Made by a program: the position numbers and the translations under genes
Part shown: in pieces, positions 12,704-44,924 of the stretch
Layout: every line of letters begins with the position of its first letter
Position numbering within the stretch: position 1 is the stretch's first letter
The notes under the pieces: model-generated
Told to the model about the DNA's origin: nothing
What the model saw: the letters and a program-made list of their open reading frames with translations, nothing else
Database searches by the model: none
DNA from: Takakia lepidozioides
Taxonomy: Eukaryota > Plantae > Bryophyta
Assembly (NCBI GenBank): GCA_030704615.1
Contig: CM060731.1
Coordinates: 26,226,001 to 26,290,000 of the forward strand
Length of the DNA: 64,000 nt
Reading direction: 5' to 3'

Positions 12704-12716
12704 GGGGGAAGGGTAA
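12702..12716 (+). promoter_or_regulatory. Polypurine tract
   Basis: GAGGGGGAAGGGTAA immediately before the 3' LTR. Confidence 0.9.
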
Positions 12717-22300: not shown

Positions 22301-22936
22301 CATGAAACAAAGAACGGAAACACCAGCAAGACGAAGACGTAAGTCTATGGTAGGGTCATCAGTAACAGAACAGGATCAGGAAGGTGCTGGATCATCCTCA
22401 AAGAAGAGGAAACCAAAGAAATCCATTGATCAGCCCTTGCTCCCGAAGTAAAGATCACCAGCATTGGAGACAACATGTTCGTTTGGGTTGTCGTGCGCAT
22501 ACATATCGCTACACAATTACATCGCTGTCCAAACCACACCACACATATATGCACAATAAAATAGTCTGCCACAATAGATAAACAAAAGCTAAAAGGACAC
22601 ACATTCTCAACACAAGAAATATGAAATCCATCGCTATCACTCTTTAAAATAGAAGTCGAGCCAGGGGCACCCCAAGCTATGGGGACTCCACCCAACAACA
22701 ACCTACACTCCCATCATAAGCACACTCAGATCTAAACGCATGAAGGAGCTCGGTCGAGCAGGCTCAACTCGAGAGAGATGAGCTGCGCGACTGACACTCT
22801 CGTGAAGATAAGATAGTTCAGGTGTCAAGCTCAAACTTGACACCTGACTTAACACTTGAACTAAATCCAAGTGTTAAATACAAATAACTAGTTTTATTCT
22901 AGTTAGTTTCACACTGCGTTTATTTAACTTGACAGC

Positions 22937-23372
22937 TGTCCTCGCCTGAACTTGTGGTAATCGTCCATAGGCGGGCCTTCCAAATGCTGGAACAGTCCCT
23001 TCCACGCCATGAATGGGGTGAATAGCTGTGGATTGCGCATCTGCTGCAAATCACACCAGCTGTCGAACTCCTGGATAAAGTCATCCAACTCGATTGTGCC
23101 CACAACTCCTGAGTACCTACGAGGCCCCTTGGTAGCTCCATACATCTCCTCCATGTCGTCCCACAACAATGGCGAATGAAACTGCACACCTGTTGATGAA
23201 GCCTTCGAGTCTGTGTCTGACTTTGCACTAGTTGAGGGTGGAGGTGAAGGTGGTCTGAAACGAACACCTCGTCTGGTGAACCCACTCTCACTGCTACTGC
23301 CTGTAGCCGTACTCCCCTCAGAACCCCTGGGTAACTCCGTGATGACACTCACAATGTGCACCTCCCCCACGT
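22937..23372 (-). pseudogene. gag: 5' fragment of gag
   Basis: Near-identical to the N-terminus of ORF 35532-37370 (IELDDFIQEFDSWCDLQQMRNPQLF); truncated at the TGTC junction. Confidence 0.9.
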
Positions 23373-23919
23373 GACACTTTAAGGCTCTATTACTAATTCT
23401 AATAGTGACACGGGTAGGCACCTGTTGTAGTTTAAGGGTCATATCCCAGTGGCTCAGGGCACCTGCACCTGCATCCACCGCAAAAACTCCTTTGGTTGGC
23501 TGGTCATCAACCCAGTCTCACCATAGAAGAAACACTGGTGGTCTTGCTGGTCATCACTCACTCCAGCCTCACCACCGACAACATACTCTAGGATTGACCG
23601 CTGATCAAATCCGGCCTAATCCCTATGAAAGCAAGCGCCCACACAAACCAACATGGTGCACAGTCAAGCATGCAGGTGTTTGGGGGGATCCAAACACAAG
23701 AAATCAAAACATCAACACCCCCACACCAAAATCCATCTACAGTGCTGACCTGCAGAATATCCCAGCCCAAAACCCCGGACTGACTGGCCTCCACCAAGAG
23801 AGGCTTTGGCAACTACGAGTACAAGGTAATGAAAATAGTACAGAGATGGAGGGGAAGAATAGAAGCCCGACCAAGCAAGATCTAACCCTGATCTATGCTA
23901 TCAACTGCCAGACTTCTCT

Positions 23920-24642
23920 CTAAGTGCCTCGCTCTGCATGATGGTAAGGTGTAGGAGGTATATCTATGTCCAGAAACCTGCCACTAACCTTGTCCCAAGC
24001 TACAGTAGCTCGCTCTAACCAACCCTCCTCCTCTTTCTGCCAAGTAGAAACAAAGCAATACTCCCCTATCTCCCGCTCACTGAACACTAAAGAAAACAAA
24101 GGTAGGGTCTGATAGTCTCTCAACTCGAAAGCTTTGAGACGGTTGCGGGTGTCCTCATTGCGAATGACTGCATCTCCTTCAAACAGAACAAACTTGTCCT
24201 CGCTAATGAACCCCCGCTCGTGGTTGCCTTGTGCAGAGCGTGTTTGGCTGCAATGCTGTCTGATTGCACAAACTTGTGTAGCTCCTGCTCCTCTACTCCA
24301 ATACACCACGGCCTTGTGGCTGAACACCTTGGTCCCCGGGGCTGTCTTTGGCTGTGTTCCAAGCCTAGCTTTCACCCACTTTGGTATTCCACCTAAAGCT
24401 GCAGAACTGCTGGCTCCAACAGGGTCCTGACTGTCCAAAGCAATATTGAGGCCCTCAACGCCAACTACAGCAGTTTGTTGTCCACTGCTAATGCCTGACT
24501 CCCAGTATGCAATCAACTCGTCCAACTGTTTTCCATTCAAATCAGTCTGAGTTCCTTGGGAAACATAAATCTTGTCCCCTTGGGTGCACAGGCTAAGAGA
24601 AGAGACCTGCCCTTCAATTACGTCCTCATTTCCCCCAGCCAT
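23920..24642 (-). CDS. Element-encoded extra ORF (ORF0, 240 aa) upstream of gag, unknown function
   Basis: ATG-initiated open frame; homologous sequence at the same position in the second copy (~37915-38636). Confidence 0.65.
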   Translation of the reverse strand: MAGGNEDVIEGQVSSLSLCTQGDKIYVSQGTQTDLNGKQLDELIAYWESGISSGQQTAVVGVEGLNIALDSQDPVGASSSAALGGIPKWVKARLGTQPKTAPGTKVFSHKAVVYWSRGAGATQVCAIRQHCSQTRSAQGNHERGFISEDKFVLFEGDAVIRNEDTRNRLKAFELRDYQTLPLFSLVFSEREIGEYCFVSTWQKEEEGWLERATVAWDKVSGRFLDIDIPPTPYHHAERGT

Positions 24643-25032
24643 ACAAGGAGTACATCCCCAGATTTATCTCTCATGTAGACCAGAACAGGTTCTAGAAACA
24701 AGATTGTGGATCTTTCATGGCACACTCATACTCTAAAAATTCCATAGATTTTTAGCAGAGTCCCAAAAACAAAAACCAGGTCTAGATAGGTAGATTTCCC
24801 CTTTCTTTAGGTCCATGCGCAAGTTTTGGGTCCAACGGCCTTGGTAGGCCAAAGTTATGGCCAAACAGGCTCTATCTAATTTAAATTAGATCAAAGAACA
24901 ATTTTTTTTTAAAAAAAATACTTGTCTTGGTTCCTGTTCCCTGGTTAACTACGGGTTCCCGAGGCCGTTCCCCTTGCACTGTGGGCACACTACTGCCCCA
25001 TTTCCGAGCGCACTCCATAGCAGCAGTCTTCC

Positions 25033-25034
<2 letters not shown>

Positions 25035-25070
<36 letters not shown>
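25035..25070 (+). repeat. (GA)n microsatellite
   Basis: Pure GA run. Confidence 0.95.
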
Positions 25071-25073
<3 letters not shown>

Positions 25074-25134
25074 ATGGTGGGACTTACAACAATAGCACAG
25101 GGCATCACCGCGTCCTTGGCATCAGCGGCATGGG

Positions 25135-25311
25135 GGCATCTCCTATTTGAGGTATTCGGATTGACCTAACCCTGATCTTCACAAACCACAGTCCATCAGC
25201 GTTGGTTGTCAACAGAACCTGATCAATCATGCCACTTTCACTGTGGCGCAAATATGTGCTCTGGTCACGCTTGGTGTAGCGCTGTGCTTGACTGGCATTG
25301 TCATCCTCCAC
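25135..25311 (-). pseudogene. NRPB2: Captured fragment of RNA polymerase II second-largest subunit
   Basis: [48 protein letters not shown] matches conserved RPB2 sequence. Confidence 0.9.
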
Positions 25312-26349
25312 ATGTTCATATCATGCCTGCGATCACCACCCAAGTTGACCCCAACCAGTATTGATAGTGAGTGCAACTCGGTTGTTCTCCACACGCTCCA
25401 TCATGCCTGCGATCAGCTTCCACACAAGGTGGTCCATTTCCGATGCCTGGCCTCCGCCCTCAATGTAGATGATATGACTCTTAACTCCCCAAATGTATGG
25501 GCCTGAGCAGCTCTCCAGCTATCCATTTCACTCCAGGCACTTTGTATTCATCCTAGGGACGTTGTGGTAGTGCAGATATCAGCGTTCACAGCTTGCCAGC
25601 CCCTCCCTTGCGAACTGCGGTTATCCAACTCATGCCAGCGCTGCTCCATGCTGCACGGTAGAGCTTTCTTTGTGAAGGATCTTGAAATAAACCTGGCAGG
25701 TTTGAATCTTTCTTATAGTAGTCACATTGTAACAGAGCCATCAAGCAACAAATTGCAGTGGCAGTCGTTTACTGGATCCTCGCAACAGCCTTCCTTGCAG
25801 GATTCTTTACCTAGTTGGTTCACATTAGCAAATGAATCAGCATCTTCATCTCGTCAAGTGGTTGGAATGCCTGAGTGGTCACTGCCCATCAATCAAACTC
25901 AGACGGAGAACGGTTTGCTTGGTCTGCAAGGACACTCTTTGTCAGTAGGTGTTTGCCCCAAACAGCCAGAGCTGCAGCAGGTCTGCACACCCAGCCCGCA
26001 GGTGGAGCAAGACTGCAAGATATGTGGGTTCACGTTGACAAACAAGCGGACATGGCCAGTCTCCAGTCCCCAGATCACTCAAGGTGAGGATTCTGAAAGC
26101 TCAGGGCATTGCCCAGTGGCAGAAATAGCTAAGCCTTCTACCTATGGTAACTTGGGGACAGGAGCATCACTTGCAATGGTTGAGCAAGAGATAACCCCAC
26201 AATCCACGGGCCCCAACACCAATCTTGGAGGGCACGGACGACACTCGCAAGGCCCGACCACTCAGCAACCTCTGCTGCCGCACAGCATCCACGCCTGCAG
26301 CGGGAGTCACCAAGGCCCTGGCAGCTACGGTCGCTACGGTCGGTTTTCC

Positions 26350-26590
26350 CTGCATGTGATAGTATCGCGCAGCTAGTGGGTGCACTAAAGGCTGGCATGA
26401 AAGAGCACATAAAGCAGCACTTGAGGCTTTGTTCCTACTACATCAAGCCTGGTCCTCCAGTCCTGCCGAGGTGGGAAAAGCACAAGCCATGGCAGCGGCA
26501 GAAGCCATCCCTATGCTGCAACTGTTGATGAGGACATGCCCCCCACGCTTTCAGAACAAGGCAGACAGCCTGCTGCAATGCCTGCCAGGA
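26350..26590 (+). pseudogene. Captured fragment of a cellulose synthase-interactive (CSI1/POM2-family) gene
   Basis: [54 protein letters not shown] resembles the CSI region just before the C2 domain. Confidence 0.8.
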
Positions 26591-29256
26591 GGACGAGAAT
26601 ATTGTTGGCTTTGAACTGCTGCAGCGACACTTCGAGTGGTTCCCGCCTTCCTGTTATGCTCCACTAGGCACACATAGCCAGTCTACCTGCAGGCTATCGT
26701 AACCAAGCTATATTATAATAGTGCTTAAAAACAGGAACGTCACATCTAGCTTAGCACTAGAAAACTAGATACAGTTCCATCTCTCTCGAGTGATAAACAA
26801 AAGCTAAAAGGACACACACTCTCAACACAAGAAATATGAAATCCATCGCTATCACTCTTTAAAATAGAAGTCGAGCCAGGGGCACCCCAAGCTATGGGGA
26901 CTCCACCCCACAACAACCTACACTCCTATCATAAGCACACTCAGATCTAAACGCATGAAGGAGCTCGATTGCGCAGGCTCAACTCGAGAGAGATGAGCTG
27001 CGCGACTGACGCTCTCGTGAAGATAAGATAGTTCAGGTGTCAAGCTCAAACTTGACACCTGACTTAACACTTGAACTAAATCCAAGTGTTAAATACAAAT
27101 AACTAGTTTTATTCTAGTTAGTTTCACACTGTGTTTATTTAACTTGACAGGGTTTCCACTTCCTTCACGTATGCGTACTTGAGTTCTGTAACATTGCTTC
27201 CCGTCTTGTACTGAAACCGGAGCTTGTGATCTGGAGGTTCCCCAACGACTTCAATGCCCCCATTCTTTTATACTGCTATTCAATTTGTATATAGCTACAT
27301 GCTCGGTCTTGTATCCCGGGGATCTGACAGGTAAGAAATCCCCACAAATGTCTGCAGACATTCCGGGTTGGCAATCTTCGGGGGCCTGAGAACTGCAAAA
27401 GCCAGATGTCCAATATTTGATCAGGAAAACACCTCGAGTCGACGTTAGAAAATGTTTATGACGTGACCATGATATTTAATCACACTATCTTTTCCACATA
27501 CAATGAAGGCCAAACCAAATCCCACAAGGTTTGTAAGCTCAAACACATTGAAAAATCTTTGTAAATATCCATCTTTTATTTATATCAGAGAGCAACTGAG
27601 ATTTACAACACATTCCTCAATAATGAGACAACATTACTCAAATGTCCAGAGACCAGTGTCTTCATCACAATAGATTCGGCCTAACCAAACAGGTTCCAAA
27701 AGAGGATCTTGACCTTGAGTTCCCGACAGCCCAAGAATCTCGGCACAGACATTGTCCATGGGTAGTTCATATTCTTCGGGGTATGACGTGCGTGGAACGT
27801 AAGTCTCTGGACTGTATGATTCTGGAACATAGGTAGAGTAGAATAACATGTATTCATATGGCCGTTGGCTATCTCGTTTAGAGGAACGAATGTACTGTGA
27901 TGAGGTTGGCATATATTCAGGGGAAGACGGACAATATCCAGGCGAGTCTGCTGCCTCTGAACCGGATGATGAGTAGACTATTTTAGTTGGTTCAATGAAG
28001 TCTGGAAGCTCGTATTTGGAGTTCCGGGAATTGGGTAGAAGCTCGATGAGTATTCGGTCGTTTCATCATTTCCACAGTAATCACTCCTACACAACCACCT
28101 ACGAACTGCCTCAGTTCACTCAAACACAAAATTAGTTTGGTCCTACCTCTCTAAAAAAATTGTTCCAAATTCTCAACGTCGACATGAATGTCGACGTCCC
28201 TTCGGAGGAGACTAAGGAGTACTATTTTTTGGAACATTTCTTCTACTACCTATGTCGAATTCAGTATGATCCTAAGTAAGGGACAGAAGATTTTACGTCA
28301 GGTCTAATGAACGTCGACGCAAATGTCGAGGTTCCAGATAAATATGTCAAGAAATAGTGGGACATTTCGCCACGAAGACGCTAATGTAAAAACCTCACCC
28401 AACCTAGCTTGCCACATCTTACCTCAGTACAAGAATCCAAATTGACCTAAGTGAAACTCAATCTCATGAAAACCGAACATAATCCAACCTCTTTGAACCG
28501 CATTTCCCAACCTAACCTGGCCTCATTAAACTCCACAACGTCGACACTCATGTCGATGTTCTTGGCATTAGCTTTTCATGATTACGTGAACCAGGAAGTT
28601 GCTATATTTCTAGATTTTTTAGACTTTCTAGACATTAATGTTGACGTTCTGACTCACTATCAATCGTGTACGCATATGGTCTTATGATTTGTTGTCTCAT
28701 ATTTGGGAATTTGGAATGGTTACAAGGAGTGTTTCCATGGTACAAGTAGTGTTCAATTCATTTCCTATGCATTGTTTATGCATGTGCAGTGCATTACATT
28801 AGCAATTGAAATTGCAGTAGAATTTGAAATACATTTGAAAGTTTGGGGCTCTTTGCATTTGGGTGTTACAGTTTTGGATCTATGGTTTGGAGCCAAGTTA
28901 AGACAAGATAAAACAATAGAAATCAAGGGAAACAAGACAACACAATGAATTAATAATTCTGCAATTTTACCTACTATTGGATGCCATGTCGAAGTGCTTC
29001 GGTGTGTCTTGGAGGCTTCCAAATAAATTCAAATGCCCTCTATCCACTGATTGACCCTTCCACAAATACATCTATTAGCTTGAAAGGTATAAAAAGAGAT
29101 CTAATAAGGACAATGGAAAACAAGGTAACCAATATGGTGGTAATGACAAGAACTTCTGGTTGGCCCTACTGTACCAAAGCCATTAGAATACCTGAAAATA
29201 ACTCGGGGCGGGAAGCCCGAACAACAAATAGAAGCTCACAGGGAAAAGAAGATTGC

Positions 29257-29343
29257 TGTCGTGCACATACATATCGCTACACAACTACATCGCTGTCCAA
29301 ACCACACCACACATATATGCACAATAAAGTAGTCTAGCACAAT
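29257..29343 (-). repeat. Repeat S (87 bp), terminal copy
   Basis: Direct repeat of 29701-29787 with one visible mismatch. Confidence 0.95.
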
Positions 29344-29698
29344 GATAATGAAGCTTGAAAGGACATACACTCCCAACACAAGAAATATAAAATCCATCGC
29401 TATCACTCATTGAAACTGAAGTCGAGCCAGGGGCACCCCAAGCTATGGGGACTCCACCCCACAACAACCTGTATCCCTACATAAGCACACTAAAACCTAA
29501 ACACATGCAGGAGCTCGGTCGCGCAGGCTCAACTCGAGAGAGATGAGCTGCGCGACTGCCGCTCTCGTGAAGATAAGACAGACCAGGTGTCAAACTAAAC
29601 TTGACACCTGATTTAACACTTGACCTAAATCCAAGTGTTAAATACAAATAACTAGTTTTATTCTAGCTGTTTTCACACTGTGCTTATTTAACTTGACA
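29344..29698 (-). repeat. Repeat L (355 bp), 3' copy
   Basis: Appears identical to 40800-41154. Confidence 0.97.
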
Positions 29699-29700
29699 GC

Positions 29701-29787
29701 TGTCGTGCGCATACATATCGCTACACAACTACATCGCTGTCCAAACCACACCACACATATATGCACAATAAAGTAGTCTAGCACAAT
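29701..29787 (-). repeat. Repeat S (87 bp), inner copy
   Basis: Follows the PPT on the sense strand; joined to L through GACA-GC-TGTC (29695-29704). Confidence 0.95.
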
Positions 29788-29797
29788 CGCCCCCCTA
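29788..29797 (-). promoter_or_regulatory. Putative polypurine tract
   Basis: Sense TAGGGGGGCG directly abutting the inner S repeat. Confidence 0.7.
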
Positions 29798-30045
29798 GCT
29801 GGTGGATAGGTCCCTCTACCTCCAGATAGCTACAAGACGTAATAGCCATAGCCGTACTAAGTCCTCTATCACTGTCCCTATCGTACTCAAACTCTATAGA
29901 CCAAGAGGCCGGGTACAAGAGTAGCCCCATCGTTAGTCGCCGTCTTGCAATCTGTGAACTTGAGCCAGGACTTCGTGTATTCAAGGTCTCCTGTAGCTGG
30001 GCCTTGCGTTTGCTTGTTAGCCTCCCATGGTTGTATCCACTCCCA

Positions 30046-33000
30046 CTATCCAATGCATTGTGGACATAACCAATCCCCATCTGGAACCATCTCAAGAGGT
30101 GGAGTCAAGCACCCCATATGCCAACCTCTAGAGCATCGATCACACACCAGCATGGTGGCTGCCCCTTTAGCAGACCCACACAACATGCACCTCAAACCTG
30201 CAGATACCACTGCCAGGTTTGGGTCAATCCTGCCATCGACATTCGGAAGGTGACATGGCGCACAATTACGCACATGGTCCTTCCAAGTTATGCCATCCCG
30301 ACCCTCCAAGACCAAGACGCCTGAGGGCAAGACCTCTCGAACCCTCAAAATAACACGTCCTGCAGTCACATCCAGGGTCGTAGGAGCAGTCTGCTGCAGA
30401 TAGACATAGTCACCAGGGTTGAATCTCCGAACCCCAGGACGATAGCCCCCACCACGTATGGTAGCATACCTCAACGTATCACGGTGTTGTGCAATGGCAA
30501 GGTTCTCGAAAGCCATAGGCATGACTCTCTTGAACAACTCTGCACGCTGCTCACATGCACGTGCCCACACGTCCGGATCGTCAAGGTTAAGAACTGTAGC
30601 AGCTTCTCTGCGAATGGATGTAGGCAAATCCGGCTCTCGGCCAAAGAGAAGAAAGTATGGTGAGAAGGAGGCAAGTGATGCTTGCTTGCTGAACCTGTAG
30701 CCCATGGCTAACCAGGGTAACTGAAGGTCCCAATCTCCTAGGTGTCCCTTCTGCAAGCCATACTTGCGCAAACCCCTCTTTACTGTCTGAACAACTCTCT
30801 CTGCCAAGCCATCGGCTTCAGGATGATCCCGAGAAGTGGTGCGGTGGTCTATCAAGGCCTTGTCACACAAAGCCTGAAACTCCCCCAAGAACTCTCTCCC
30901 TTGGTCCGTGAGTACCTCAGCTGGAGCACCGAATCGGCTAAGCACACAATCCAGGAATGCATACGCAGCTCCCTCACTAGCCTTATCAGGCAATGGAACC
31001 AATTCAATCCACTTGGAGAAGTGCTCCACCATCACCAACACGTACTTGTTGTGGCGCATGGTCAGTGGCAACGGCCCTGCGAAGTCAAGACTCCACCTGT
31101 AGCCCAATCCCATGATCGGAAGAGGGTGCAATTGTGGAGTAGGGGCGTTGAATGAAGCACGCACCCTGTCACACACCATGCACCTAGCCACAAATTGTTG
31201 CACCTCTGTGTGCATACCACGCCACCAATACTGCCCCTGCAGTAGACTATGAGTGCGTCGCACCCCAAAATGCCCCAACTCGCGCACTAACCGTGCCCGC
31301 TGTGTTGGGTGAGGCACAATCCTCACTCGACCATCCTCCCACACTCGGAGCAGGTGTGTCCCCTCCCACTTGAACCTCTTGGCTCGTTGTAGGATCCGAT
31401 CCCTCTCCTTGGCAGTCATAGTGGCTGCCGTGTCTCCACTGCGGAGGTAGTCCAACACAACTGAATCCTCATGTATATCTTTGGCGCCACCCTGCTCATT
31501 GCTGGCCTCAGGGTCCTCAGACACTTGATCTACAGTCATCCCTGTTGTAGGTCCAACCTGGCCTTCCGCTGCCAAGATACACAGAAATGCAGATGCATGC
31601 CATCCGGGCACCATCTCCTCGTCCGTCTCACCATGCCACCGAGCTCCAGTGTCATCCTGCTGGCTCGTGCATGGATTGCGACTCAACCCATCTGCATTTC
31701 GATTGACCAAACCCGGTCGATGCACCACCTGAAAGTCATACTCTTGAAGGATGAGTGCCCACCGTGCAAGCTTCCCCGTAAGCTTGTCTGACTCCATCAA
31801 CCACTTGAGTGGTTGGTGATCCGTGACAAGGGTGAAGAGATTGCCGTATAGATAGCACCTGAAGTGTGCCACGGCCCACACTGCAGCTAAGCATTCTCCC
31901 TCATATGAGCTATACTTAGACTCTGCAGCATTGTTCGAGCGGCTAGCATAAGCCACTACGAACTCTCTTCCCTCATCATCCACCTGTGTGAGCACCGCTC
32001 CAAGCCCCAGCATGCTCCAATCTGTATGCAGCTGAAAAGGACGCCCCCTGATAGGTCGTCTCAAGATGGGCGCCGAGGTCAACCTCGCCTTGAGCTCTTG
32101 AAAAGCTTGTTCTTGCTCATCTTCCCACTGCCACTCCTGGTCCACCTTGGTCAGCTTGGTTAGAGCCTTTGCAATGGCACTAAATCCCTTAACAAACCGT
32201 CTGTAATAGTTTGCTAACCCCATGAAAGCTCGAACTCGGCTCACATCCGTGGGGCGTGGAACCTGTGCAATGGACTCTACCTTAGTCTGCTGTACCCCCA
32301 ATCCTCCAGGATATATCATGTGACCCAGATACTCAATCTGGTTGTGGAAAAACTTGCACTTGCCCGGATGTAACTTCAATCCGTGCGTCCTCAAGCGCTC
32401 AAATACCCCCTGAAGGTGTCTCTCATGCTCCTCCACCGTAGCACTAAAGATGATGATGTCATCTATGTAGCACCGAGCAAACTCCACCCCTGCTAGAATC
32501 CTGTCCATGACTCTTTGAAACTCAGCGGGAGCGTTTTTAAGCCCAAATGGTAAGAACCGCCACTGGTATAGGCAATCCTTCCCGTGCTCATTGATCCCCC
32601 AGAATGCCGTCTTTTGCTTATCCGCCTCCTTGATCGGCAACTGGTGATATCCGGATCGTAAATCCAACGTGCTAAAGACCTTGGAATGCCCAATGGCATC
32701 AAAGATCTCCTCTGGTGTTGGCATGGCATACCTATCGGACTTGGTCTGACGATTTACAGGCCGGTAATCACCGCACATACGTCTCTCCGTCCAATTGCCA
32801 TAGACATCCTTCTTAGCTGGCATCACTGTGGCTGAAGCATACTCTCCACCAGAGAGCTCCACCAAACCTGCCTCCCAGAGATCTTGAGTCCTCATCTGAA
32901 TCAAAGACCTCTCCATGTCACTGTATCTATAGGGTCTCCGAAAGATTGGCGTGTCAGTGGCCAACTCAATACGGATCTCTTGACCCTTCAGTGCTCCCAA

Positions 33001-33168
33001 GTCCTTCAAACTGAAGGCAAAGCAATTCCTGTAAGCCCTCAGGAACCGCCGTATACGTCGTCTCTCTCCTCCGGTGACAATGGGTCCAATGTCAGGCTCC
33101 CAATTGTCCTCCGTAACTGCAACCTTAAGTCCAGTGGGCTTAGAGGTAGAGGACGCGTCCCGTGGTTG
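30046..33168 (-). CDS. pol: RT-RNase H-integrase-PHD polyprotein
   Basis: RT STLDLRSGYHQ, PFGLKNAP, CYIDD; RH LHTDWS...YEGECLA...TDHQPL; IN WSLDFAGP, LTDQGREF, GLAERVVQ; C-terminal PHD CMLC...CDRCSRGWHMGCLTPPL...GDWLCPQC. The frame is open right up to the UAG at 33169-33171. Confidence 0.96.
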   Translation of the reverse strand, partial: QPRDASSTSKPTGLKVAVTEDNWEPDIGPIVTGGERRRIRRFLRAYRNCFAFSLKDLGALKGQEIRIELATDTPIFRRPYRYSDMERSLIQMRTQDLWEAGLVELSGGEYASATVMPAKKDVYGNWTERRMCGDYRPVNRQTKSDRYAMPTPEEIFDAIGHSKVFSTLDLRSGYHQLPIKEADKQKTAFWGINEHGKDCLYQWRFLPFGLKNAPAEFQRVMDRILAGVEFARCYIDDIIIFSATVEEHERHLQGVFERLRTHGLKLHPGKCKFFHNQIEYLGHMIYPGGLGVQQTKVESIAQVPRPTDVSRVRAFMGLANYYRRFVKGFSAIAKALTKLTKVDQEWQWEDEQEQAFQELKARLTSAPILRRPIRGRPFQLHTDWSMLGLGAVLTQVDDEGREFVVAYASRSNNAAESKYSSYEGECLAAVWAVAHFRCYLYGNLFTLVTDHQPLKWLMESDKLTGKLARWALILQEYDFQVVHRPGLVNRNADGLSRNPCTSQQDDTGARWHGETDEEMVPGWHASAFLCILAAEGQVGPTTGMTVDQVSEDPEASNEQGGAKDIHEDSVVLDYLRSGDTAATMTAKERDRILQRAKRFKWEGTHLLRVWEDGRVRIVPHPTQRARLVRELGHFGVRRTHSLLQGQYWWRGMHTEVQQFVARCMVCDRVRASFNAPTPQLHPLPIMGLGYRWSLDFAGPLPLTMRHNKYVLVMVEHFSKWIELVPLPDKASEGAAYAFLDCVLSRFGAPAEVLTDQGREFLGEFQALCDKALIDHRTTSRDHPEADGLAERVVQTVKRGLRKYGLQKGHLGDWDLQLPWLAMGYRFSKQASLASFSPYFLLFGREPDLPTSIRREAATVLNLDDPDVWARACEQRAELFKRVMPMAFENLAIAQHRDTLRYATIRGGGYRPGVRRFNPGDYVYLQQTAPTTLDVTAGRVILRVREVLPSGVLVLEGRDGITWKDHVRNCAPCHLPNVDGRIDPNLAVVSAGLRCMLCGSAKGAATMLVCDRCSRGWHMGCLTPPLEMVPDGDWLCPQCIG

Positions 33169-35565
33169 CTATGCTGCAACCTCTTGAGCAGTACCCCCTT
33201 CCTGCTCAGTCAATGACAAGGCCTCATCCTGCCCCATCATCTCATCATTGAGAACCTCCTCATCCCGAGAAGAATCCCCAACCTCATCCATCACAGCTGC
33301 CTTCGCTGCCAACTCCCTCTGAACCTCGAGCACCTCCCACGTGTGCCATGGATGTCTACACCTCGTGGTCCTCACCGGCTCGCCCCCACTCGCTGCCTGT
33401 ACCGTCTCGGTAGGCAGAGAGACCGTCAAGGGAAGTGCACTCCGCACTCTACGTTGCTCAGCCATAGCCAAGCTGACAATCCAGGTCAAGCAATTGAGAT
33501 CCATTGCTTGCCCCAACACCTGACGACGTGATGCCTCAGAAAGAGAAGGCACCGCCGTGGTCCCAGTGGAAAACCCCATAGCCCGCTCTCGCTCGTCGGC
33601 ATTAGGCTCCACTAACTGCTGCAACTGAGCATCCCACAAGAGGCCAGGTCCACCATCCCGAAAAGCATGGGATCCTGGGAAGCTGAGCAGTGTAGGTAAT
33701 GCTGCTCGTGGTTGACCCACCCTGTTGACCACTGCCAAAGGCGAACGGTCATCGTGTCTCACACGTTGAGACTGCCTTCCTGTGTCCAAAATGCCATCCA
33801 CGGTGAGGTGTGCTGGCCGCTGCACCCCATCAAATGCACGCTTGAGCAGTGCGGGTGGCATCAAGTTAGTCCACCATAGTCGTGGACGATGAGCCCGTGA
33901 CCCCACTGCAGCTGCATCCAGCAATACTGCTGACCCAAGCCACGACCGGACTTGATGCACACTGGCCATCACCCTGGCCCGAGAATCACCCATCAGTGGT
34001 ACATTCTCCAAGATGTATGCTGGAGATACAGCTTGATGAAGCTGCAAGCAGCGCAAAATCCGCACCATCTCCCAAAACAGACCCGTCCTCGAGTCTCGCA
34101 ATCCATTGCCATGCCCGGCTGATGAATGCCCTTGGCAGGGCCAACCTGCCACTATCAGATCAATGGAGCCAACCTGCTCCAAATCTTGCGCCCCCAACAA
34201 GGAAATGTCTGCTGGCAAGGCTTGTTGGTATCCACGAACTGCAGACACAGGCAACAAGTCAGGGTACTGCTGTACCAACTGAGCCACATGGCGCAGTGAG
34301 ACGCGTCGTGCAGTCTCATCCCTCTCCACATACAGGTAACGCCTTACCCGCACACCTGCCTGTAGCACAGCAGCCAATCCGGTGCTGATCCCGCCAAACA
34401 AGTCCAGAAGGCAAATGCCTTCATCCGGCCGCTGCCACACAAGAGGTGTGGTGTCCAATGGCGACAACTGAGGTGGCCCTGGTGCAATCACCGCACTCTC
34501 CTCCTCTCCTGACGGTACAAAAGCTTCTACCCAAGCTTGTTGCACCCGTCCATCAGCAGCTTGCTGCAAATCCTTGCTCGTACCCCACAACGGAGTGTGA
34601 GCAACCATGGCAGGCAACTCCGCCGTACCATGCATGTCATCCTGCTCTGCTGGAGGTGGCACATCCTCTGCATGGGCATTGCCTTCCAGCAACTCTCCAG
34701 GCCAACTAACTGCAGCTGTGAAGGCGGCTAGTGTTGGCATCTTGCCCCGCTGGGCAGCTGCAATACCCCCAATGAATGTCACAGGGAGCTGTGCACGGCG
34801 ACCATCCCCTGACTGCCATCCAGGCCTGTAGGATGCTGACTCCTCCCAGAAATCCAGGGTGAAGCCCATGGGGTATAACACTGCCCCACCAACGAGGACA
34901 TCGTAAGAGACCGCGTCTGTCACAATGGCCTTGGCTCGCATCACTGAGCCATCTACAGGATGATCCGGCTGCAGTCTAATAGCCAACTGATGCCGTGTCA
35001 TGCCGCGAGCCTGCTCTGATCCTCCCAGAGATGTCTGTATCTGGAAAGGACAAGGCTCCATATCCGCCTCCATGAGGCCCAAACCTGCAATAGCAGCTCT
35101 GCCCAACATCAGTGGCTGAGCTCCTGAGTCCAACAAGACCCGCAGTGGCCGGTACTTCTTGCCTGCCGGTCCACTCAAAGTGAAAATGCCTCCCTGGTTG
35201 TCTAACAAGACAACTCCAGGTGTCACCATGGCGCGCTCAATGGCTGGCCTAGCTGGCAGCTCCGTCAACCTGGCAGCTGCAACTTGCCATGGCGCAGCCG
35301 TGGCAGTCTTGACCCTCAAATCCGAGGATCCCTCTGCCACTACACCTTCCACTAACTCCGCAGAAGATGAAGTGACCTCCCCACTCTCACAGAGTGTTGC
35401 TGCTAGTCTGAACACTGCAGCTGGTCTCACCCCCGGCGTCGCAATCATGGTTGCCGAGAACAGTGGGGCTTGACACACAGAGGTGGCTGCCCCCAATAAC
35501 ACACCGGTTGCACTAGCCTTGGTAGCAGGTGTCAGTGCTGCACGTGTAGCTCTCCCCAATGGCAT
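33169..35565 (-). CDS. Aspartic protease plus C5-cytosine DNA methyltransferase (DNMT3-like; domain ~33450-34425)
   Basis: PR VLLDSGAQ; MTase motifs I LDLFGGISTG, II YVERDE, IV VAGWPCQGHS, VI YILENV, VIII AHRPRLWWTN, IX ERERAMGF, X RRQVLGQAM, in canonical order. Confidence 0.93.
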   Translation of the reverse strand: MPLGRATRAALTPATKASATGVLLGAATSVCQAPLFSATMIATPGVRPAAVFRLAATLCESGEVTSSSAELVEGVVAEGSSDLRVKTATAAPWQVAAARLTELPARPAIERAMVTPGVVLLDNQGGIFTLSGPAGKKYRPLRVLLDSGAQPLMLGRAAIAGLGLMEADMEPCPFQIQTSLGGSEQARGMTRHQLAIRLQPDHPVDGSVMRAKAIVTDAVSYDVLVGGAVLYPMGFTLDFWEESASYRPGWQSGDGRRAQLPVTFIGGIAAAQRGKMPTLAAFTAAVSWPGELLEGNAHAEDVPPPAEQDDMHGTAELPAMVAHTPLWGTSKDLQQAADGRVQQAWVEAFVPSGEEESAVIAPGPPQLSPLDTTPLVWQRPDEGICLLDLFGGISTGLAAVLQAGVRVRRYLYVERDETARRVSLRHVAQLVQQYPDLLPVSAVRGYQQALPADISLLGAQDLEQVGSIDLIVAGWPCQGHSSAGHGNGLRDSRTGLFWEMVRILRCLQLHQAVSPAYILENVPLMGDSRARVMASVHQVRSWLGSAVLLDAAAVGSRAHRPRLWWTNLMPPALLKRAFDGVQRPAHLTVDGILDTGRQSQRVRHDDRSPLAVVNRVGQPRAALPTLLSFPGSHAFRDGGPGLLWDAQLQQLVEPNADERERAMGFSTGTTAVPSLSEASRRQVLGQAMDLNCLTWIVSLAMAEQRRVRSALPLTVSLPTETVQAASGGEPVRTTRCRHPWHTWEVLEVQRELAAKAAVMDEVGDSSRDEEVLNDEMMGQDEALSLTEQEGGTAQEVAA

Positions 35566-37370
35566 AGTAACCTCCGCCTCGGTAACGTCGGGCGAGAACT
35601 AGGTGCCATGGATGGCGTTGACACTGTCTCCGCCAAGGTGAATGACTGAGGCAGCCTCGCCTGACGGCTTGCCTCCCCACGTTGTGGATCCAACTCCACC
35701 TCTGCACCTCGTGGCTCAGGAACTCGTGCTGCTCCTCGAGTCACGGCTGCAGCAGACTCCACCTGCTCTAGTGGTAGTGCTGCTCCGCACATGAATCCCA
35801 TGCCTCCCATATCTCCTCCATCAGGAGCAGGAGGTGGACCATCCCGCCTGGGAGCCGGTACCGCCTGAGCTATAGCCATGGCAGCGAGCCTCTGCTCTAG
35901 CTGCTGAAGCCGATTGGCCATGCCTTGGTCAACACCTTGACCTCCGCGTCCTTGGCCATGTGGAGCTTGCCCTTGGCCTGCACCTCGTGCCCGACCACCT
36001 CGTCCTCTTTGGGCTGGTCCACCTCGCCCCCGGCCACCATTGTTCCCTTGGAACTGGCCTGGGCGCAACTCAGGATGCAAGTCATAACACTGGGCATCTA
36101 CATGCCCATACTTGCCACAATGCCCACACTGCAACTGTGCAGGCTGTGCTTGTGCCGGCCTTCTGCCATTCTCTGGGCAATCTCTTTTGACATGGGGTCC
36201 TCCACATGTCCAACATATCACCCCTGGTTGCTGTTGGCCTGCAAAAGATGCCACGGGCCTCTGCACCTGAGGTCCCCTGTGTGCTCCATGGAACTTGGGC
36301 TGGGCAACCTTGCCCCCCTGACCACGCTGTTGGGCAGTCCCTTGTGCCTGTGGGCTGACAGCTGTGCCCCGTACAGGCATGTCCTTGCCAAATCCAATTG
36401 TAACAACTCGCTCCTCCACCATGTTGAGCTCAATCCGCTCAGCCAGCAGAAACACATCTGCTAATGTGGGTTGGGCTGCTTGTAACAAGGTTGCATCTCG
36501 CACCCTTCTCTTGAGCTCCTTGTCCAGAATTCCATACCAAAACTGGATTGCCTGAGCTTCAGTAACCCCTTGGGTCACACTTATCAAGCGCCTCATACGA
36601 GTGTACGCCTCTCGCAGGCTCTCACTGGGTTTGCGCTGGAAGTCTTGCAAACTTCGCAGCTTCTTTGTCCGTACACCTTGGTAGTTCCTCCGCAACTCCT
36701 GGAAGAACTCCACCACCGGGTTGAATCTAGGCACATGTGTTGTAGTCGTGGCAGGAGGAGTAGTAGCACCTTTTGAACTGGTACCACCTACAGAAGTACC
36801 AGCACTACTTGCTCCACTACTAGTGCTGGCAGTGGGAGCTATTGGTACTGATGCAGCTACTGGTCGCGTCGTGCCTCGAGTAATGGAGACGTAGTCAGGT
36901 GACCAATACATCCTCCACTCCTCAATCTCTGCTTCATGTCCTCGCCTGAACTCGTGGTAATCGTCCATAGGCGGGCCTTCCAAATGCTGGAACAGTCCCT
37001 TCCACGCCATGAATGGGGTGAATAGCTGTGGATTGCGCATCTGCTGCAAATCACACCAGCTGTCGAACTCCTGAATAAAGTCATCCAACTCGATTGTGCC
37101 CACAGCTCCAGAGTACCTACGAGGCCCCTTGGTAGCTCCATACATCTCCTCCATGTCGTCCCACAACAATGGCGGATGAAAGTGCACACCTGTTGATGAA
37201 GCCTCCGAGTCTGTGTCTGACTCTATAGTAGTTGAGGGTGGCGGTGAAGGTGGTCTGAACCGAATACCTCGTCTTGTGAACCCACTCTCACTGTTACTGC
37301 TTGTAGCCGTACTTCCCTCAAAACCCTTGGGTAACTCCGTAATGACACTCACAATGTGCACCTCCTCCAC
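35532..37370 (-). CDS. gag: Gag
   Basis: LQDFQRKPSESLREAYTRM...FWYGIL; zinc knuckles CWTCGGPHVKRDC and CGHCGKYGHVDAQC; RGG-rich region. Confidence 0.92.
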   Translation of the reverse strand: MEEVHIVSVITELPKGFEGSTATSSNSESGFTRRGIRFRPPSPPPSTTIESDTDSEASSTGVHFHPPLLWDDMEEMYGATKGPRRYSGAVGTIELDDFIQEFDSWCDLQQMRNPQLFTPFMAWKGLFQHLEGPPMDDYHEFRRGHEAEIEEWRMYWSPDYVSITRGTTRPVAASVPIAPTASTSSGASSAGTSVGGTSSKGATTPPATTTTHVPRFNPVVEFFQELRRNYQGVRTKKLRSLQDFQRKPSESLREAYTRMRRLISVTQGVTEAQAIQFWYGILDKELKRRVRDATLLQAAQPTLADVFLLAERIELNMVEERVVTIGFGKDMPVRGTAVSPQAQGTAQQRGQGGKVAQPKFHGAHRGPQVQRPVASFAGQQQPGVICWTCGGPHVKRDCPENGRRPAQAQPAQLQCGHCGKYGHVDAQCYDLHPELRPGQFQGNNGGRGRGGPAQRGRGGRARGAGQGQAPHGQGRGGQGVDQGMANRLQQLEQRLAAMAIAQAVPAPRRDGPPPAPDGGDMGGMGFMCGAALPLEQVESAAAVTRGAARVPEPRGAEVELDPQRGEASRQARLPQSFTLAETVSTPSMAPSSRPTLPRRRLLCHWGELHVQH

Positions 37371-37914
37371 GTGACACTATAAGGCTCTAGTACTAATCTA
37401 ATAGTGACACGGGTGGGCACCTGTTGCAGTCTAAGGGTCATATCCCAATGGCTCAGGGCACCTGCACCTGCATCCACCGCAAGAACTCCTATGGTTGGCT
37501 GGTCATCAACCCAGCCTCACCATAGAAGAAACACTAGTGGTCTTGCTGGTCATCACTCCAGCCTCACCACCGACAGCATACTCTAGGATTGACCGGTGAT
37601 CAAATCCGGCCTAATCCCTATGAAAGCAAGCGCCCACACAAAACCAACATGGCGCACAGTCAAGCATGCAGGTGTTGGGGGGGATCCAAACACAAGAAAT
37701 CAAAGCATCAACACCCCCACACCAAATCCAGCAGCAACGCTGATCCTGCAGAATATCCCAGCCCAAAACCCCGGACTGACTGGCCTCCACCAAGAGAGGC
37801 TTTGGCAACTACAAGTACAAGGTAATGAAAATAGTACAGAGATGGAGGGGAAGAATAGAAGCCCGCCCAAGCAAGATCTAATCCTGATCTATGCTATCAA
37901 CTTCCAGACTTCTC

Positions 37915-38636
37915 TCAAAGTGCCTTGCTCTGCTTGATGGTAAGGTGTAGGAGGTATATCTATGTCCAAAACCTGCCACTAACCTTGTCCCAAGCTACAG
38001 TAGCTCGCTCTAACCAACCCTCCTCCTCTTTCTGCCAGGTAGAGACAAAGCAATACTCCCCTATCTCCCGCTCACTGAACACTAAAGAAAACAAAGGTAG
38101 GGTCTGATAGTCTCTCAACTCGAAAGCTTTGAGACGGTTGCGGGTGTCCTCATTGCGAATGACTGCATCTCCTTCACGCACAACAAACATGTCATTGCTG
38201 ATGAACGCCCGCTCGTGGTTGCCCTGTGCAGAGCGTATCCGGCTGCAACCATGTCTGATTGCACAAACTTGTGTAGCTCCTGCTCCTCTGCTCCAGTACA
38301 CCACGGCCTTGTGACTGAACACCTTGGTCCCCGGGGCTGTCTTTGGCTGTGTTCCAAGCCTAGCTTTCACCCACTTTGGTATTTCACCTACAGCTGCAGA
38401 ACTGCTGGCTCCAACAGAGTTCTGACTGTCCAAGGCGATATTGAGGCCTCAATGCCAACTACAGCAGTCTGTTGTCTACTGCTAATGCCTGACTCCCAGT
38501 ATGCAATCAACTCGTCCAACTGTTCTCCACTCAAATCAGTCTGAGTTCCTTGGGAAACATAAATCCTGTCCCCTTGTGTGCACAGACTAAGAGAAGAGAC
38601 CTGCCCTTCAATTACGTCCTCATTTCCCCCAGCCAT
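37915..38636 (-). pseudogene. ORF0 (frameshifted copy)
   Basis: Homologous to 23920-24642 but split into ORFs 38388-38636 and 37960-38433. Confidence 0.65.
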
Positions 38637-39234
38637 GCAAGGAGTACATCCACCAATTTGTCTCTCATATAGACCAGCACAGGTTCTAGAGACAGGATTG
38701 TGGATCTTTCATGGCACACTCACACTCTAAAAATTCCATAGATTTTTAGCAGAGTCCCCAAAACAGAAACCAGGTTTAGATAGGTAGATTTCCCCTTTCT
38801 GCAGCTATCCCCCCAAAAACTGGGTCAAACGGAGCTCATTTGACAAAGATATGACCAACCAGGCTCTTTAAACATTTAAATTAGATCAAAAAGGTTTTTT
38901 TTTTTTTTTTTTAACACCAAAACGCTTTTGCCATTACAACCTGTTCCCAGGTTATCTACGAGTTCCCGAGGTCGTTCATGTAGTTCTCACAGGTTCCCTT
39001 ACCAATGTCCACAGAGCTTGAGCTGCGAAAACAAAACGGGATCTTTGCACCACGGCCAAGGAAGGGGCCGCAGCAAGCCGCGTGCATGCCATTGCTGTCG
39101 CCATCTCTTTCCCGCTTCCTCACCTAGCCCAAGCTTGCAAACTCTGAGTGGGCTCTATTGCGAGTTTCTCCTCGCCGAGCAGATGCCAGCACAACGACGA
39201 CAGATCGAACGGACGACCAATCTTCGAACCTAAA

Positions 39235-39524
<290 letters not shown>

Positions 39525-39642
39525 TGATTTGGTGTCCGCCAGACTTATGCTTCCTGGCCCCAGCCGAATAGAGAGAACACTGCCCCAACAATTGTAGATT
39601 CCGCTTCGCTTATTTGAAGACGATGCTTGGCAAAATCTTATC

Positions 39643-40290
39643 TCAGTAAGTGATATTAAGAAACTTGGCCATGGCTTCCACGGCACCTGGTGGCCACTGC
39701 AGCTCTACACCAATCCACCTGATATTGCTGTACTGCGGTTCCCGAGCAGTGGTCTCAGAGAACCGTTCCTCTGCCCGGCTGCGGTCACCTTCTCTCCACA
39801 GCACTGCCGCTAGAACTGCATGAGCCTCAGTGTAATTTGGATACTTCCGGACAAGGCCTTGTATCAGTTTCTTGGCCTCCCCCAATCTGTCGAGCTGAAA
39901 GAGAACCAGAGCTTACTTGAGTCGGTATCTGAAATCCTGGGCCGCCTCCTCAAACTTCAGAAGGGAGACCCTCACACTCCCCCGGTTGGACCAGACACTG
40001 GCATTTGCGGAATCCTCATCTATCAAAGCTGAAAACAATTCTTCAGCAGTTTCCAGGTTTCCAGCAACCGCCGCCCTGAGAGCATCCTGCAGCTTGGGAT
40101 TTTCAACGTCTTTGAGCTTTACTCTCGTTGAAACTGCTGCTTTTGCAGGAAGATCAACATTGCCCAACCTTAGTGCTCCAAGTGCCACAGAAAGGCTGAA
40201 TAACAGTTGGCGTCAGGCAGTTACTGACGAGTGCCCTGCGATACCGGCATTACCATCTCTTCCTTCTCGTTGTAGTCGTCTCTCTGCCTA
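39643..40290 (-). pseudogene. Captured TPR-protein coding fragment
   Basis: AEELFSALIDEDSANASVWSNRGSVRVSLLKFEEAAQDF and LVRKYPNYTEAHAVLAAVLW...WPPGAVEAMAKFL, typical of cyanobacterial/plastid-type TPR proteins. Confidence 0.75.
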
Positions 40291-40559
40291 GCCGCTCCTC
40301 AGCTACAGACCGCAGGCTTCGTTGAAACTTGAGCTGGGTAATACCCTGATTCTTGGGCTCTCCATAAGCGGTACCCTTGCTCACAGGCCTCTTCAATCCA
40401 AAAAAACGGGCTGGCTTGGAGTCACCCACGGCAAGCCCTTCATTTCCACTCCACACGGCAGCCCTGAGACGATGACAGGATCGCTGCAGAAGAATCTAGG
40501 CACGAAAAAGAGCTAACCTCTAACCCGTCGTTACTTGATGAATCAATCAGGCAGCATTC

Positions 40560-40703
40560 ATCTCCAGTAGCCTGAGCAAGATCTCTACTAAACGCGTGAC
40601 TCCAGCAAGATCCGCTAGCAGTAACTGCAAGTGAAGTATCCACCGCAAGCTTAATAGCTTTCTGCCGCTCCGGAATGGTTAAACACTCAGTTGAATCATT
40701 CAC
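40560..40703 (-). pseudogene. Captured fragment resembling IBH1/atypical bHLH N-terminal region
   Basis: RQKAIKLAVDTSLAVTASGSCWSHA resembles the R..AIK.AAD..LA......WSRA pattern. Confidence 0.55.
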
Positions 40704-40786
40704 AGACCTGTGTCACACCAAGGTATATTATAATAGTGCTAAAACAAACATTATATCTAGCTTAGCACTAGAAAACTAGATGGCTG

Positions 40787-40799
40787 ATCTCTCTCGAGT
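40787..40799 (-). promoter_or_regulatory. Self-priming-type PBS
   Basis: Sense ACTCGAGAGAGAT abuts the 5' L repeat and is the perfect complement of 40988-41000 within it; no TGG-starting tRNA PBS is present. Confidence 0.75.
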
Positions 40800-41154
40800 G
40801 ATAATGAAGCTTGAAAGGACATACACTCCCAACACAAGAAATATAAAATCCATCGCTATCACTCATTGAAACTGAAGTCGAGCCAGGGGCACCCCAAGCT
40901 ATGGGGACTCCACCCCACAACAACCTGTATCCCTACATAAGCACACTAAAACCTAAACACATGCAGGAGCTCGGTCGCGCAGGCTCAACTCGAGAGAGAT
41001 GAGCTGCGCGACTGCCGCTCTCGTGAAGATAAGACAGACCAGGTGTCAAACTAAACTTGACACCTGATTTAACACTTGACCTAAATCCAAGTGTTAAATA
41101 CAAATAACTAGTTTTATTCTAGCTGTTTTCACACTGTGCTTATTTAACTTGACA
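40800..41154 (-). repeat. Repeat L (355 bp), 5' copy
   Basis: Appears identical to 29344-29698; not accompanied by S. Confidence 0.97.
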
Positions 41155-42894
41155 TTGCAATTATCGCAACCTGAAGATAATATTCCTTATCTAATTTAAT
41201 CCCCTTGCCTCTCTCCCCTCTCCCTCCTTCTCTATCTCTTAGGACGGGAAGCCCGAACAGCAAATAGAAGCTAAGAGGAAAGGAGATGCAATTGTCATTT
41301 TGTTGGCAACTTTAAGACAATATTCAGTTTTCAATGCCTTACCATCTCTCCCCTCTCTCTCTCCTTCTCTCTCTCTTAGGGCAAGAAACCCCAACAACAA
41401 ACACAAGGTGAGAGGAAAGTGAGATTGAAAATGAACCTAAAACATGCATTGCCAGCATTGTTTATGATCTTTAGAATCTATCTATGCACACTGAAATCCA
41501 TGCCTACATCCTCATGTAACTGTTGTTCTCTGTCTTTACAACTTACCCAACTTCCATTTGAAATTATTCATGCTTGACTGCACATGCTGTTTAGCAGGGC
41601 TGTCCTCCTTCGTAACAACAGTCTCTATCGCAATCTTGCTCAGGTCACACTCTAGTGGCAAACAAGCAAGGTAACACGCAAGTACCACAATCTTGGTTTG
41701 TAGCAGCAGCTCCTGCAACAAGCTTAGGCATGGCTGTATATTTCATAGTCCAGAACCTGCACTTCTATTGTTGGATTAGAGTCAGCAGCATCTTGCCAAA
41801 CGGCCAGTCACTAGAAGAAAAACGCGGAATAACCACTGCCCCCTTAACCACTCTTGTCTTTTATCACTCTATAAATCACTTCAAGTAATGGTAACCACTG
41901 GTCAGTGGTTAATTCCGATGAAATGCCACGGTGGCATCATATGGAGTGGTTGGAAGTGGTTTCAACCACTGAGTAATCCACGTGTAATATTTAATTTTAT
42001 ATTTATTATTCGACATTTGGTCAAATATTTATATTAATAATGATAATATCCGACATGGACGGGTATAGTGATAAATTATGAGTGGTTAAAGACACCTCAC
42101 TGATGGGAAGTGGTTGAAACCACTTTCTACTCCACGTGTAATAATTTTTTTTAAGATTTTTATCATTTCAAAATATATTATTCCACGTGGACGAGGATAG
42201 TATACGTAGATCTGGAGTGGTTAAAGACCCCCCAGTGATTGGTACCACTTGCACAGTGGTGGAATGTGAGTGGTTAAGACCCTTTTGTAACTGGAACCAC
42301 TCTTCAAGTGGGCACTTGTGAGTGGTTACATACACGTGAGTGATTGTAACTACTTCTGTGGTGGGTTGTGAGTGGTTGAAGACACCTCAGTGATGGGAGG
42401 TGATTGAAACCACTTGCTACTCCACGTGTAATAATTCAATTTTTATTTAAGATTTATCATTTCAAAATATATTTAATTATGAACTATATTATTCCACGTG
42501 GACGGGGACAGTATACGTAGATCTGGAGTGGTTAAAGACCCCCATTGATTGGTACCACTTTGAGAGTGGTGTAGAGTGAGTGGTTACAAACCATTTAGTA
42601 ACTAGAACCACTCGGCTAGTGGTTACGCGTTAGTGATTACATACACACCAGTGATTGGTATTACTTCTGTGGTGAAAAACTTTAGTGGTTTGTGTGTTGA
42701 TGGAAAACCCAAAATCCATCCATCTATCGCTACATTCATCCATCCAATCATGAGTGAGGGGACTTAGCGTTTTTTTTGTCTTCCCTGCCATCGTGGCATC
42801 TGTTTGTTTTATTTGTGTCGAGTTTGATTGTGAAAGACAAACATGACAGAGCTATGTTTGTTTTATTATAGTGTCGAGTCTGATCATGAGAGAC

Positions 42895-44920: not shown

Positions 44921-44924
44921 CTTG

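Follow-up and report, generated by a model that had tools for sequence, protein, structure and literature searches.

Does a retrotransposon of a land plant carry its own DNA methyltransferase (DNMT), and how would it make and use such an enzyme? The question is raised by a 64,000-nucleotide stretch of DNA deposited under Takakia lepidozioides (GenBank assembly GCA_030704615.1, contig CM060731.1, positions 26,226,001 to 26,290,000; hereafter the window). It holds a Ty3/gypsy-type retrotransposon of 11,898 bp (29257..41154, minus strand), which runs from TGTC to GACA between the two copies of a 4-bp target-site duplication, its limits being given by its repeats and by an empty site in another sequencing run (X8). 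The element is genuine and recently inserted and represents, in what is likely a land plant, the KnitGypsy-Dnmt3 kind, which is known but has been little studied. An element with a DNMT is no new concept; what is added here is a conserved readthrough arrangement and a mechanism of split ends that can be read from the repeats. All features of the element described below lie on the minus strand, apart from a cassette of mixed orientation in its leader.

The methyltransferase and the stop codon behind it

A stop-free frame of 809 codons (35598-33169) contains an aspartic-protease region (34789..35298), recognized by sequence and conserved in relatives, some of which match PF13650, and then a C5-methyltransferase domain (about 34443-33454). 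The domain matches PF00145 with an expectation value (E) of 6.8e-13 (49 bits against a cut-off of 22), and its PDB sequence ranking is headed by human DNMT3A (E 6.7e-11), followed by DNMT3B, DRM and M.HhaI. Motifs I to X stand in unpermuted order, and the catalytic Pro101-Cys102 (Cys codon 34137-34135), Glu145 of motif VI and Arg185/Arg187 of motif VIII, numbered from 34440, are all present; motif positions were obtained by arithmetic and the domain edges may be a few bases off. The catalytic Cys, the Glu and the Arg pair are kept in at least 90% of 47 aligned relatives, a set gathered by similarity, which favours conservation. An AlphaFold2 model built from this 47-sequence alignment reached a mean pLDDT of 94.4 and found DNMT3A (6f57) as its best Foldseek match (E 5.1e-20; TM 0.71 by query and 0.84 by target); every top fold match listed was a DNMT3, and both the whole fold and the recognition region of the predicted structure match DNMT3A. 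DNMT3 is nearer to the domain than DRM or the bacterial enzymes, as judged by sequence ranking and fold matches. By sequence and modelled fold, the domain is a complete, unpermuted DNMT3-like C5 cytosine methyltransferase, which bears out the original prediction of such a domain with intact catalytic residues, including its proposed check by a PF00145 profile.

Against nine close loci, the DNMT gave a non-synonymous divergence (pN) of 0.18-0.22 at saturated synonymous sites (pS 0.72-0.75), and reverse transcriptase (RT) gave a pN of 0.15-0.17 against five loci in the same comparison; omega in the unsaturated DNMT pairs was 0.13, 0.09 and 0.29. Judged from these sequence comparisons, purifying selection on the DNMT between lineages is about as strong as on RT, and the expectation that the domain would be under selection rather than neutral in other copies held.

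The domain had also been placed between protease and RT. That order stands, but the domain is not simply a part of Pol: it ends its open reading frame (ORF) at a conserved in-frame stop with a readthrough-type context, TAG CAA CCA (33163..33171, the TAG itself at 33171-33169), and RT, RNase H, DDE integrase and a C-terminal PHD finger follow downstream in a frame of 1040 codons. Of 48 DNMT-RT junctions compared, 26 are close, and each of these shows TAG or TAA at the homologous position with CAR-YY behind it (22 CAA CCC, two CAG TTA, one CAA CTC and one CAA CCA); 21 of the 26 stay in frame from one side of the stop to the other; the others are 18 junctions of a sister lineage with no conserved stop, three decayed ones with TAA CAA TCA and one unclear case. 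The Marchantia ORFs (1278-1281 aa) and the 1319-aa members of the Calypogeia cluster end at the same stop. A chance mutation was rejected as its origin, since it is conserved at the 26 close junctions.

Type I readthrough has the consensus UAG-CAR-YYA and works with UAA too (PMC3542737; statements on published systems, here and below, refer to the accessible parts of the cited texts). The window's TAG CAA CCA is the full consensus, a context that it shares with the type I readthrough site of tobacco mosaic virus (PMC3542737), and CAR-YYA codon pairs are found 7 times in 1847 across the ORFs of the window. No Met follows the stop until about 85 codons downstream, where the sequence already belongs to conserved RT. 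Gag-protease-DNMT is thus likely the main product and RT-RNase H-integrase-PHD a readthrough extension of a few percent; given the conserved stop and its readthrough context, Gag-protease-DNMT would be in excess over RT-integrase. Murine leukaemia virus, SIRE1 and Tca2 also have an in-frame stop between structural and enzymatic parts (PMC2194720); theirs follows gag, whereas the stop in the window follows protease and an accessory enzyme.

An algal precedent, as originally predicted, does exist. KnitGypsy-Dnmt3 of Klebsormidium nitens combines gypsy domains and DIRS-type repeats with DNMT and RT in one ORF (PMC5890265), and shares with the window element the gypsy domains, an unpermuted intronless DNMT3-like domain, purifying selection and DIRS-type split repeats. 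The two differ in that the DNMT of KnitGypsy-Dnmt3 lies in the RT ORF, whereas a conserved stop separates them in the window, and in that the host of the former is an alga and that of the latter likely a land plant; the likeness is one of described features. In the sister lineage and in relative P0079, unlike in the window, one ORF holds the DNMT together with RT and RNase H. Readthrough, self-priming, target duplications, a palindromic junction and a PHD finger are not mentioned in the accessible text on KnitGypsy-Dnmt3 (0 occurrences of PHD). SymbioDIRS-Dnmt3 of Symbiodinium, which methylates CG de novo in yeast (PMC5890265), likewise joins a retrotransposon-borne DNMT3 to split repeats; it is a tyrosine-recombinase element and, according to its authors, an independent capture, whereas the window element has a DDE integrase. 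The Chlamydomonas element Gypsy-7a_cRei has a gypsy polyprotein with a PHD finger, as in the window, but no methyltransferase among its named domains, and its long terminal repeat (LTR) layout differs according to the accessible legend (PMC9940879).

Split repeats and the ends of the element

From 5' to 3', the element consists of A1 (356 bp, 40799..41154, its 5' end), the internal region, B1 (87 bp, 29701..29787), two bases, A2 (29343..29698) and B2 (29257..29343, its 3' end). A1 and A2 show 0/356 differences and B1 and B2 differ at one of 87 positions. The long repeats had been taken for an identical pair of LTRs; their identity was confirmed, but they are not ordinary LTRs, being the A parts of a split-repeat structure. 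The whole A...B-A-B layout was found in six loci (L051, L076, L085, L087, L090 and L096) whose repeat sequences are unrelated. At the B1/A2 junction (29695..29704), both element ends stand back to back with two extra bases between them and form the perfect palindrome GACA-GC-TGTC, and the elements of relatives carry GACA-NN-TGTC at this junction. At the A2/B2 junction, the end of A next to the primer site meets the end of B next to the polypurine tract, and this junction varies by about one base between sister copies. A polypurine tract (29788..29800) directly precedes B1, in the same place as in relatives. An 87-bp target duplication was rejected as the source of the B repeats, because B1 follows this tract and the real duplication measures 4 bp.

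Directly after A1 lies a predicted self-priming primer-binding site (40787..40799), complementary over a 13-nt Watson-Crick run to a stretch in the interior of A1 (40988..41000), the predicted 5' end of the transcript and its self-primer. The run was matched by 0/200 shuffles and is paired in the predicted fold (z -3.9). Similarly, 10-17 nt directly after A are complementary to A positions 152-180 in eight of nine elements, as against 0-1 of 200 shuffles, and the elements with such self-complementarity span four unrelated repeat sequences. A survey of self-priming elements (Neumann et al. 2019, PMC6317226) asks for at least 10 complementary bp that begin within 0-5 bp downstream of the LTR, which describes the window element as well as Tf1/sushi and Tcn1, whose primer sites are complementary to the 5' LTR; these have ordinary LTRs, unlike the window element. 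The accessible text of that survey contains 0 occurrences of methyltransferase, PHD or Marchantia. No tRNA-type primer site was seen after A1, and the window contains no tRNA genes.

Among the elements with both ends, the 4-bp duplication is exact in six of nine, agrees at three of four bases in two and is absent from one (L076). A contig of run X8, from another study, joins the left flank to the right flank with one copy of the four bases, which indicates that the insertion is polymorphic in the species and that the ends are exact. The insertion is also young, because A1 and A2 are identical and the empty site occurs in another sample, in agreement with the age first proposed from the identical repeats.

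A shorter A...B form, ending after the first B, was observed at six of 15 distinct 3' ends with a polypurine tract (L026, L027, L036/L037, L043, L057 and L070), and may represent one-LTR circle products or B-to-B recombinants. An A-B-A form and variants of the A2/B2 junction were not resolved among the contigs aligned to the 3' repeats, which are short.

The internal region follows the Gag-protease-RT-RNase H-integrase order with a DDE integrase that is characteristic of Ty3/gypsy elements, as are the TG...CA ends and the short target-site duplication; two full direct LTRs, also a mark of this group, are replaced by A and B-A-B. A gag frame with a weak Retrotrans_gag match and two Cys/His knuckles (35532..37376) is followed, beyond the protease and DNMT, by RT and RNase H (31738..32784; PF00078, PF17919 and PF17917), the zinc finger and core of the integrase (30820..31278; PF17921 and PF00665) and the PHD finger at the integrase C-terminus (30055..30189; PF00628, E 1.3e-10). 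A tyrosine recombinase ORF, by which membership of the DIRS/Ngaro/PAT group is recognized, is not part of this architecture, and no such Pfam family was found in the element ORFs scanned.

The call of an apparently intact gene is correct for the DNMT domain and does not extend to the whole element. In the window copy, gag is offset from the protease frame, whereas both are in the same frame in 20 of 32 loci, and gag, protease and DNMT form a single ORF in the Marchantia and Calypogeia relatives; the length at the gag/protease break differs in other copies of all four runs (4/4). A programmed frameshift was rejected on these grounds. The integrase zinc finger is short by four codons compared with relatives (near 31281), and, with the gag break and this gap, the window copy is likely non-autonomous. 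About 90,000 contig pieces from one run align to the element, a figure that is not a copy number, and the family is therefore abundant and diverse in its host.

The 5' leader of the window copy contains a variable cassette of captured host gene fragments (38977..40717), in which Pfam matches to ribosomal protein L15, a TPR protein and a kinesin motor occur in mixed orientation. It is not shared with a second family copy (22489..27149, minus strand), which is internally deleted and retains A1, a different cassette, the start of gag, the junction, A2 and B2, with a 4-bp duplication of its own. The two cassettes are of near-equal length and occupy the same position (38977-40717, about 1.74 kb; 24970-26702, about 1.73 kb), as if host RNA had been captured repeatedly into one fixed slot. 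In the second copy, gag was fused by the deletion to the B/A junction at a shared GACA (22937-22940), so that B1 was lost and the palindrome kept; its 4-bp duplication is still perfect.

Relatives and host

The DNMT region had 69 relatives at E <=0.001 among 7996 scored, the nearest named ones being from Calypogeia fissa (74%), Marchantia polymorpha (up to 75%) and Sphagnum. A quick tree of 81 domains, midpoint-rooted and built without host DNMT3 or DRM, places the window DNMT in a 24-row group with the Marchantia, Calypogeia and Sphagnum relatives (SH-aLRT 96). A profile search returned 689 clusters at E <=1e-30 among 1.84 billion representatives; the profile spans flanking positions, and not every cluster need be a DNMT. 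The DNA loci compared here come from metagenomes and are the best 80 of 385 confirmed, many of them from a few related samples and not independent. No Klebsormidium-named protein was among the DNMT matches. Viral contigs gave 18 distant methyltransferases (24-49% over short stretches), which were not used as evidence.

The element family is widespread in bryophyte genomes, and the original statement that canonical land-plant gypsy lineages lack the domain gives an incomplete picture. In Marchantia, full-length Gag-protease-DNMT ORFs (P0093 and P0094) on the V chromosome and on autosomes carry annotations as host genes. In a separate clade (20 rows, SH-aLRT 99; L067, L072-L074, L082 and P0080-P0089), the DNMT lies between RNase H and integrase, so related polyproteins have housed the domain at two different places; the palindromic junction of the window element recurs in L082. 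The sister lineage (L070-L098) lacks a conserved stop and shows changes in motifs IV and VI, but keeps the split repeats; in two of its members (L076/L077) gag is in another frame.

As for previous descriptions, according to a 2019 hypothesis paper, land plants such as tracheophytes have no transposons that encode a methylase (PMC6338049), and the accessible text of a 2025 paper repeats only the 2018 report (PMC12344493). We found no land-plant description of such elements, and beyond the papers cited here nothing on split repeats with an integrase or on this readthrough, in literature that mostly excluded subscription papers and Repbase.

The host is likely a land plant, as originally predicted, and of bryophyte grade. 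The evidence is a multi-exon molybdenum cofactor sulfurase gene (52690..63330, plus strand), identified by protein comparison. Over 19 segments it shares 60% identity with a protein of Ceratodon, and with two fern proteins it shares 52%; the comparison returned eight proteins, none named as from an alga, a liverwort or a seed plant. Its reading frame shifts within an apparent long exon (54441-54830), by a short intron, a lesion or an assembly error. Elsewhere in the window there is another gypsy element (667-13542), broken into gag, RT, RNase H and integrase pieces with LTRs, and several unexplained ORFs lie in this region (9179-12703). Transposon remnants at 16967-18052 and 49623-49916 are of CACTA type (Transposase_21, DUF4218) and SWIM-finger type, and in 42000-49700 there are several short repeat arrays, tandem and dispersed, whose periods are about 120-320 bp.

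A possible life cycle and its alternatives

The function first suggested for the window DNMT, methylation of the element's own complementary DNA (cDNA), is plausible and had already been proposed for such enzymes by de Mendoza et al. 2018 (PMC5890265). Our preferred reading, which we hold with somewhat more confidence than doubt, is that a gypsy element of the KnitGypsy-Dnmt3 kind methylates its own cDNA in the particle with a DNMT made at the level of Gag, obtains RT and integrase by readthrough, and is inserted by an integrase that opens an internal palindrome. The RNA would start inside A1 and prime itself as in Tf1-type elements. Minus-strand priming after A and plus-strand priming before B would then give, under ordinary reverse transcription, a linear cDNA whose LTR is B-GC-A. 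Joining of the two cDNA ends, in a two-LTR circle or by an end-to-end jump, would create the A2/B2 junction, and variation of about one base there between sister copies is expected if the junction is made anew by end joining. In the upstream LTR, the integrase may cut both strands of GACA-GC-TGTC behind CA, so that the processed ends insert A...B-A-B, and one-LTR circles or B-to-B recombination would yield the dead A...B form. Foamy-virus integrase is known to cut both strands of a palindromic LTR-LTR junction behind CA (PMC1180852). In that virus the palindrome arises where the linear ends meet, whereas in the window element it is encoded within the LTR, and the junction of the linear ends would persist in the integrated copy. 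The protease would release abundant DNMT in the particle, where the enzyme would act on new cDNA, as its place in the abundant Gag product suggests; methylated at its cytosines, a new copy could arrive pre-marked, with the PHD finger perhaps tethering integration to chromatin.

Several observations weigh against this account. At the ends, L076 has no matching duplication, the stem of L096 is only weak and fails the self-priming test, and the mirror product A-B-A...B, which a joined-cDNA circle predicts, is missing, B being found upstream in 0/20 distinct 5' A copies. This would require that one palindrome is chosen by an unexplained bias, unless the elements are copied in a Ngaro-like way. At the stop, 22 of the 26 close junctions read CAA CCC, short of the full CAR-YYA, with an ATG two codons on, so re-initiation could occur there; one family accounts for most of the 26, and the independent lineages number only four. 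The absence of a conserved stop from the sister lineage (18/48 junctions) and the location of the DNMT between RNase H and integrase in another clade mean that Gag-level dosage is not universal. For the enzyme, omega reaches 0.45 and 0.55 inside a decaying moss-like family, and KnitGypsy-Dnmt3 gave no methylation in yeast, a result that its authors regard as inconclusive (PMC5890265). Finally, the land-plant placement rests on one gene with no algal comparator.

Could the DNMT be something other than a cDNA methyltransferase? A structural or nucleic-acid-binding module, or an enzyme acting on RNA, would agree with the inactivity of KnitGypsy-Dnmt3 in yeast, with the altered motifs of the sister lineage (IV in 17 and VI in 16 of 58 sequences) and with an abundance at the level of Gag, which fits a structural role too. 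We consider it unlikely, if worth serious attention, given that the catalytic residues are kept across the aligned relatives, that fold and recognition region match DNMT3A, and that human DNMT3B failed in the same yeast assay (PMC5890265). An active enzyme might instead methylate the DNA of the host, either where the element inserts or in trans, and be kept for limiting transposition or marking the locus; a benefit to the host has been raised before (PMC5890265), and the PHD finger of the integrase does tie the element to chromatin. This is rather improbable, as the stop parts the DNMT, in the Gag-protease product, from integrase-PHD, an arrangement that fits action in the particle better than action at the target. 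Less probable again is that the stop is passed by splicing, re-initiation or a separate RNA. The ATG two codons past the stop in the moss-like family and the case of Tca2, whose in-frame gag stop need not be passed by a simple signal (PMC2194720), speak for such a route; the frame kept over the stop in most close junctions, CAR-YY in all 26 and the lack of such an ATG in the window family or L065 speak for readthrough.

For the ends, the principal competitor is copying as in Ngaro or PAT elements, in which the RNA would extend through B2 and template the A2/B2 junction, while the internal B/A junction would do no more than rebuild the ends, and no two-LTR circle would be needed. The repeat layout is identical to that of DIRS-group elements (PMC5890265), and the missing A-B-A...B would be explained. 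Such copying nevertheless seems unlikely: with a conserved self-priming stem behind A and a polypurine tract ahead of B, B+A makes up a standard LTR, both priming sites coincide exactly with the A2/B2 junction, which varies by one base between copies, and the 4-bp duplications and CA ends indicate a DDE integrase, in agreement with the ORF scan for tyrosine recombinases. That the contig is charophyte-algal or misassembled, which would remove the land-plant novelty, is the most remote of these alternatives. It draws on the want of algal proteins among the host-gene comparators and is countered by named relatives on assembled Marchantia chromosomes and in Calypogeia and Sphagnum, by the grouping of the window DNMT with these in the quick tree, by the moss-like sulfurase, and by coverage of the element in runs of several studies, with its flanks joined in the empty site.

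Beyond our preferred reading, we entertain only tentatively the wider idea of a widespread green-lineage clade whose integration ends lie in the middle of the LTR and whose obligately end-joined cDNA is opened at the internal palindrome. In land plants, the readthrough stop would load Gag-level DNMT3 into the particle, and methylation of the cDNA before integration may serve to tell the identical palindromes apart.

Although such elements have been said to be absent from land plants (PMC6338049), many copies lie on Marchantia chromosomes as unnamed hypothetical genes. Standard LTR finders expect two full LTRs and would probably miss them. Because Marchantia is a genetic model, the use that a retrotransposon makes of its own DNMT3 becomes testable. 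The end structure gives a concrete account of DIRS-type repeats in an integrase element and, if this account is true, the two-LTR circle, normally a dead end, would be a substrate for integration.

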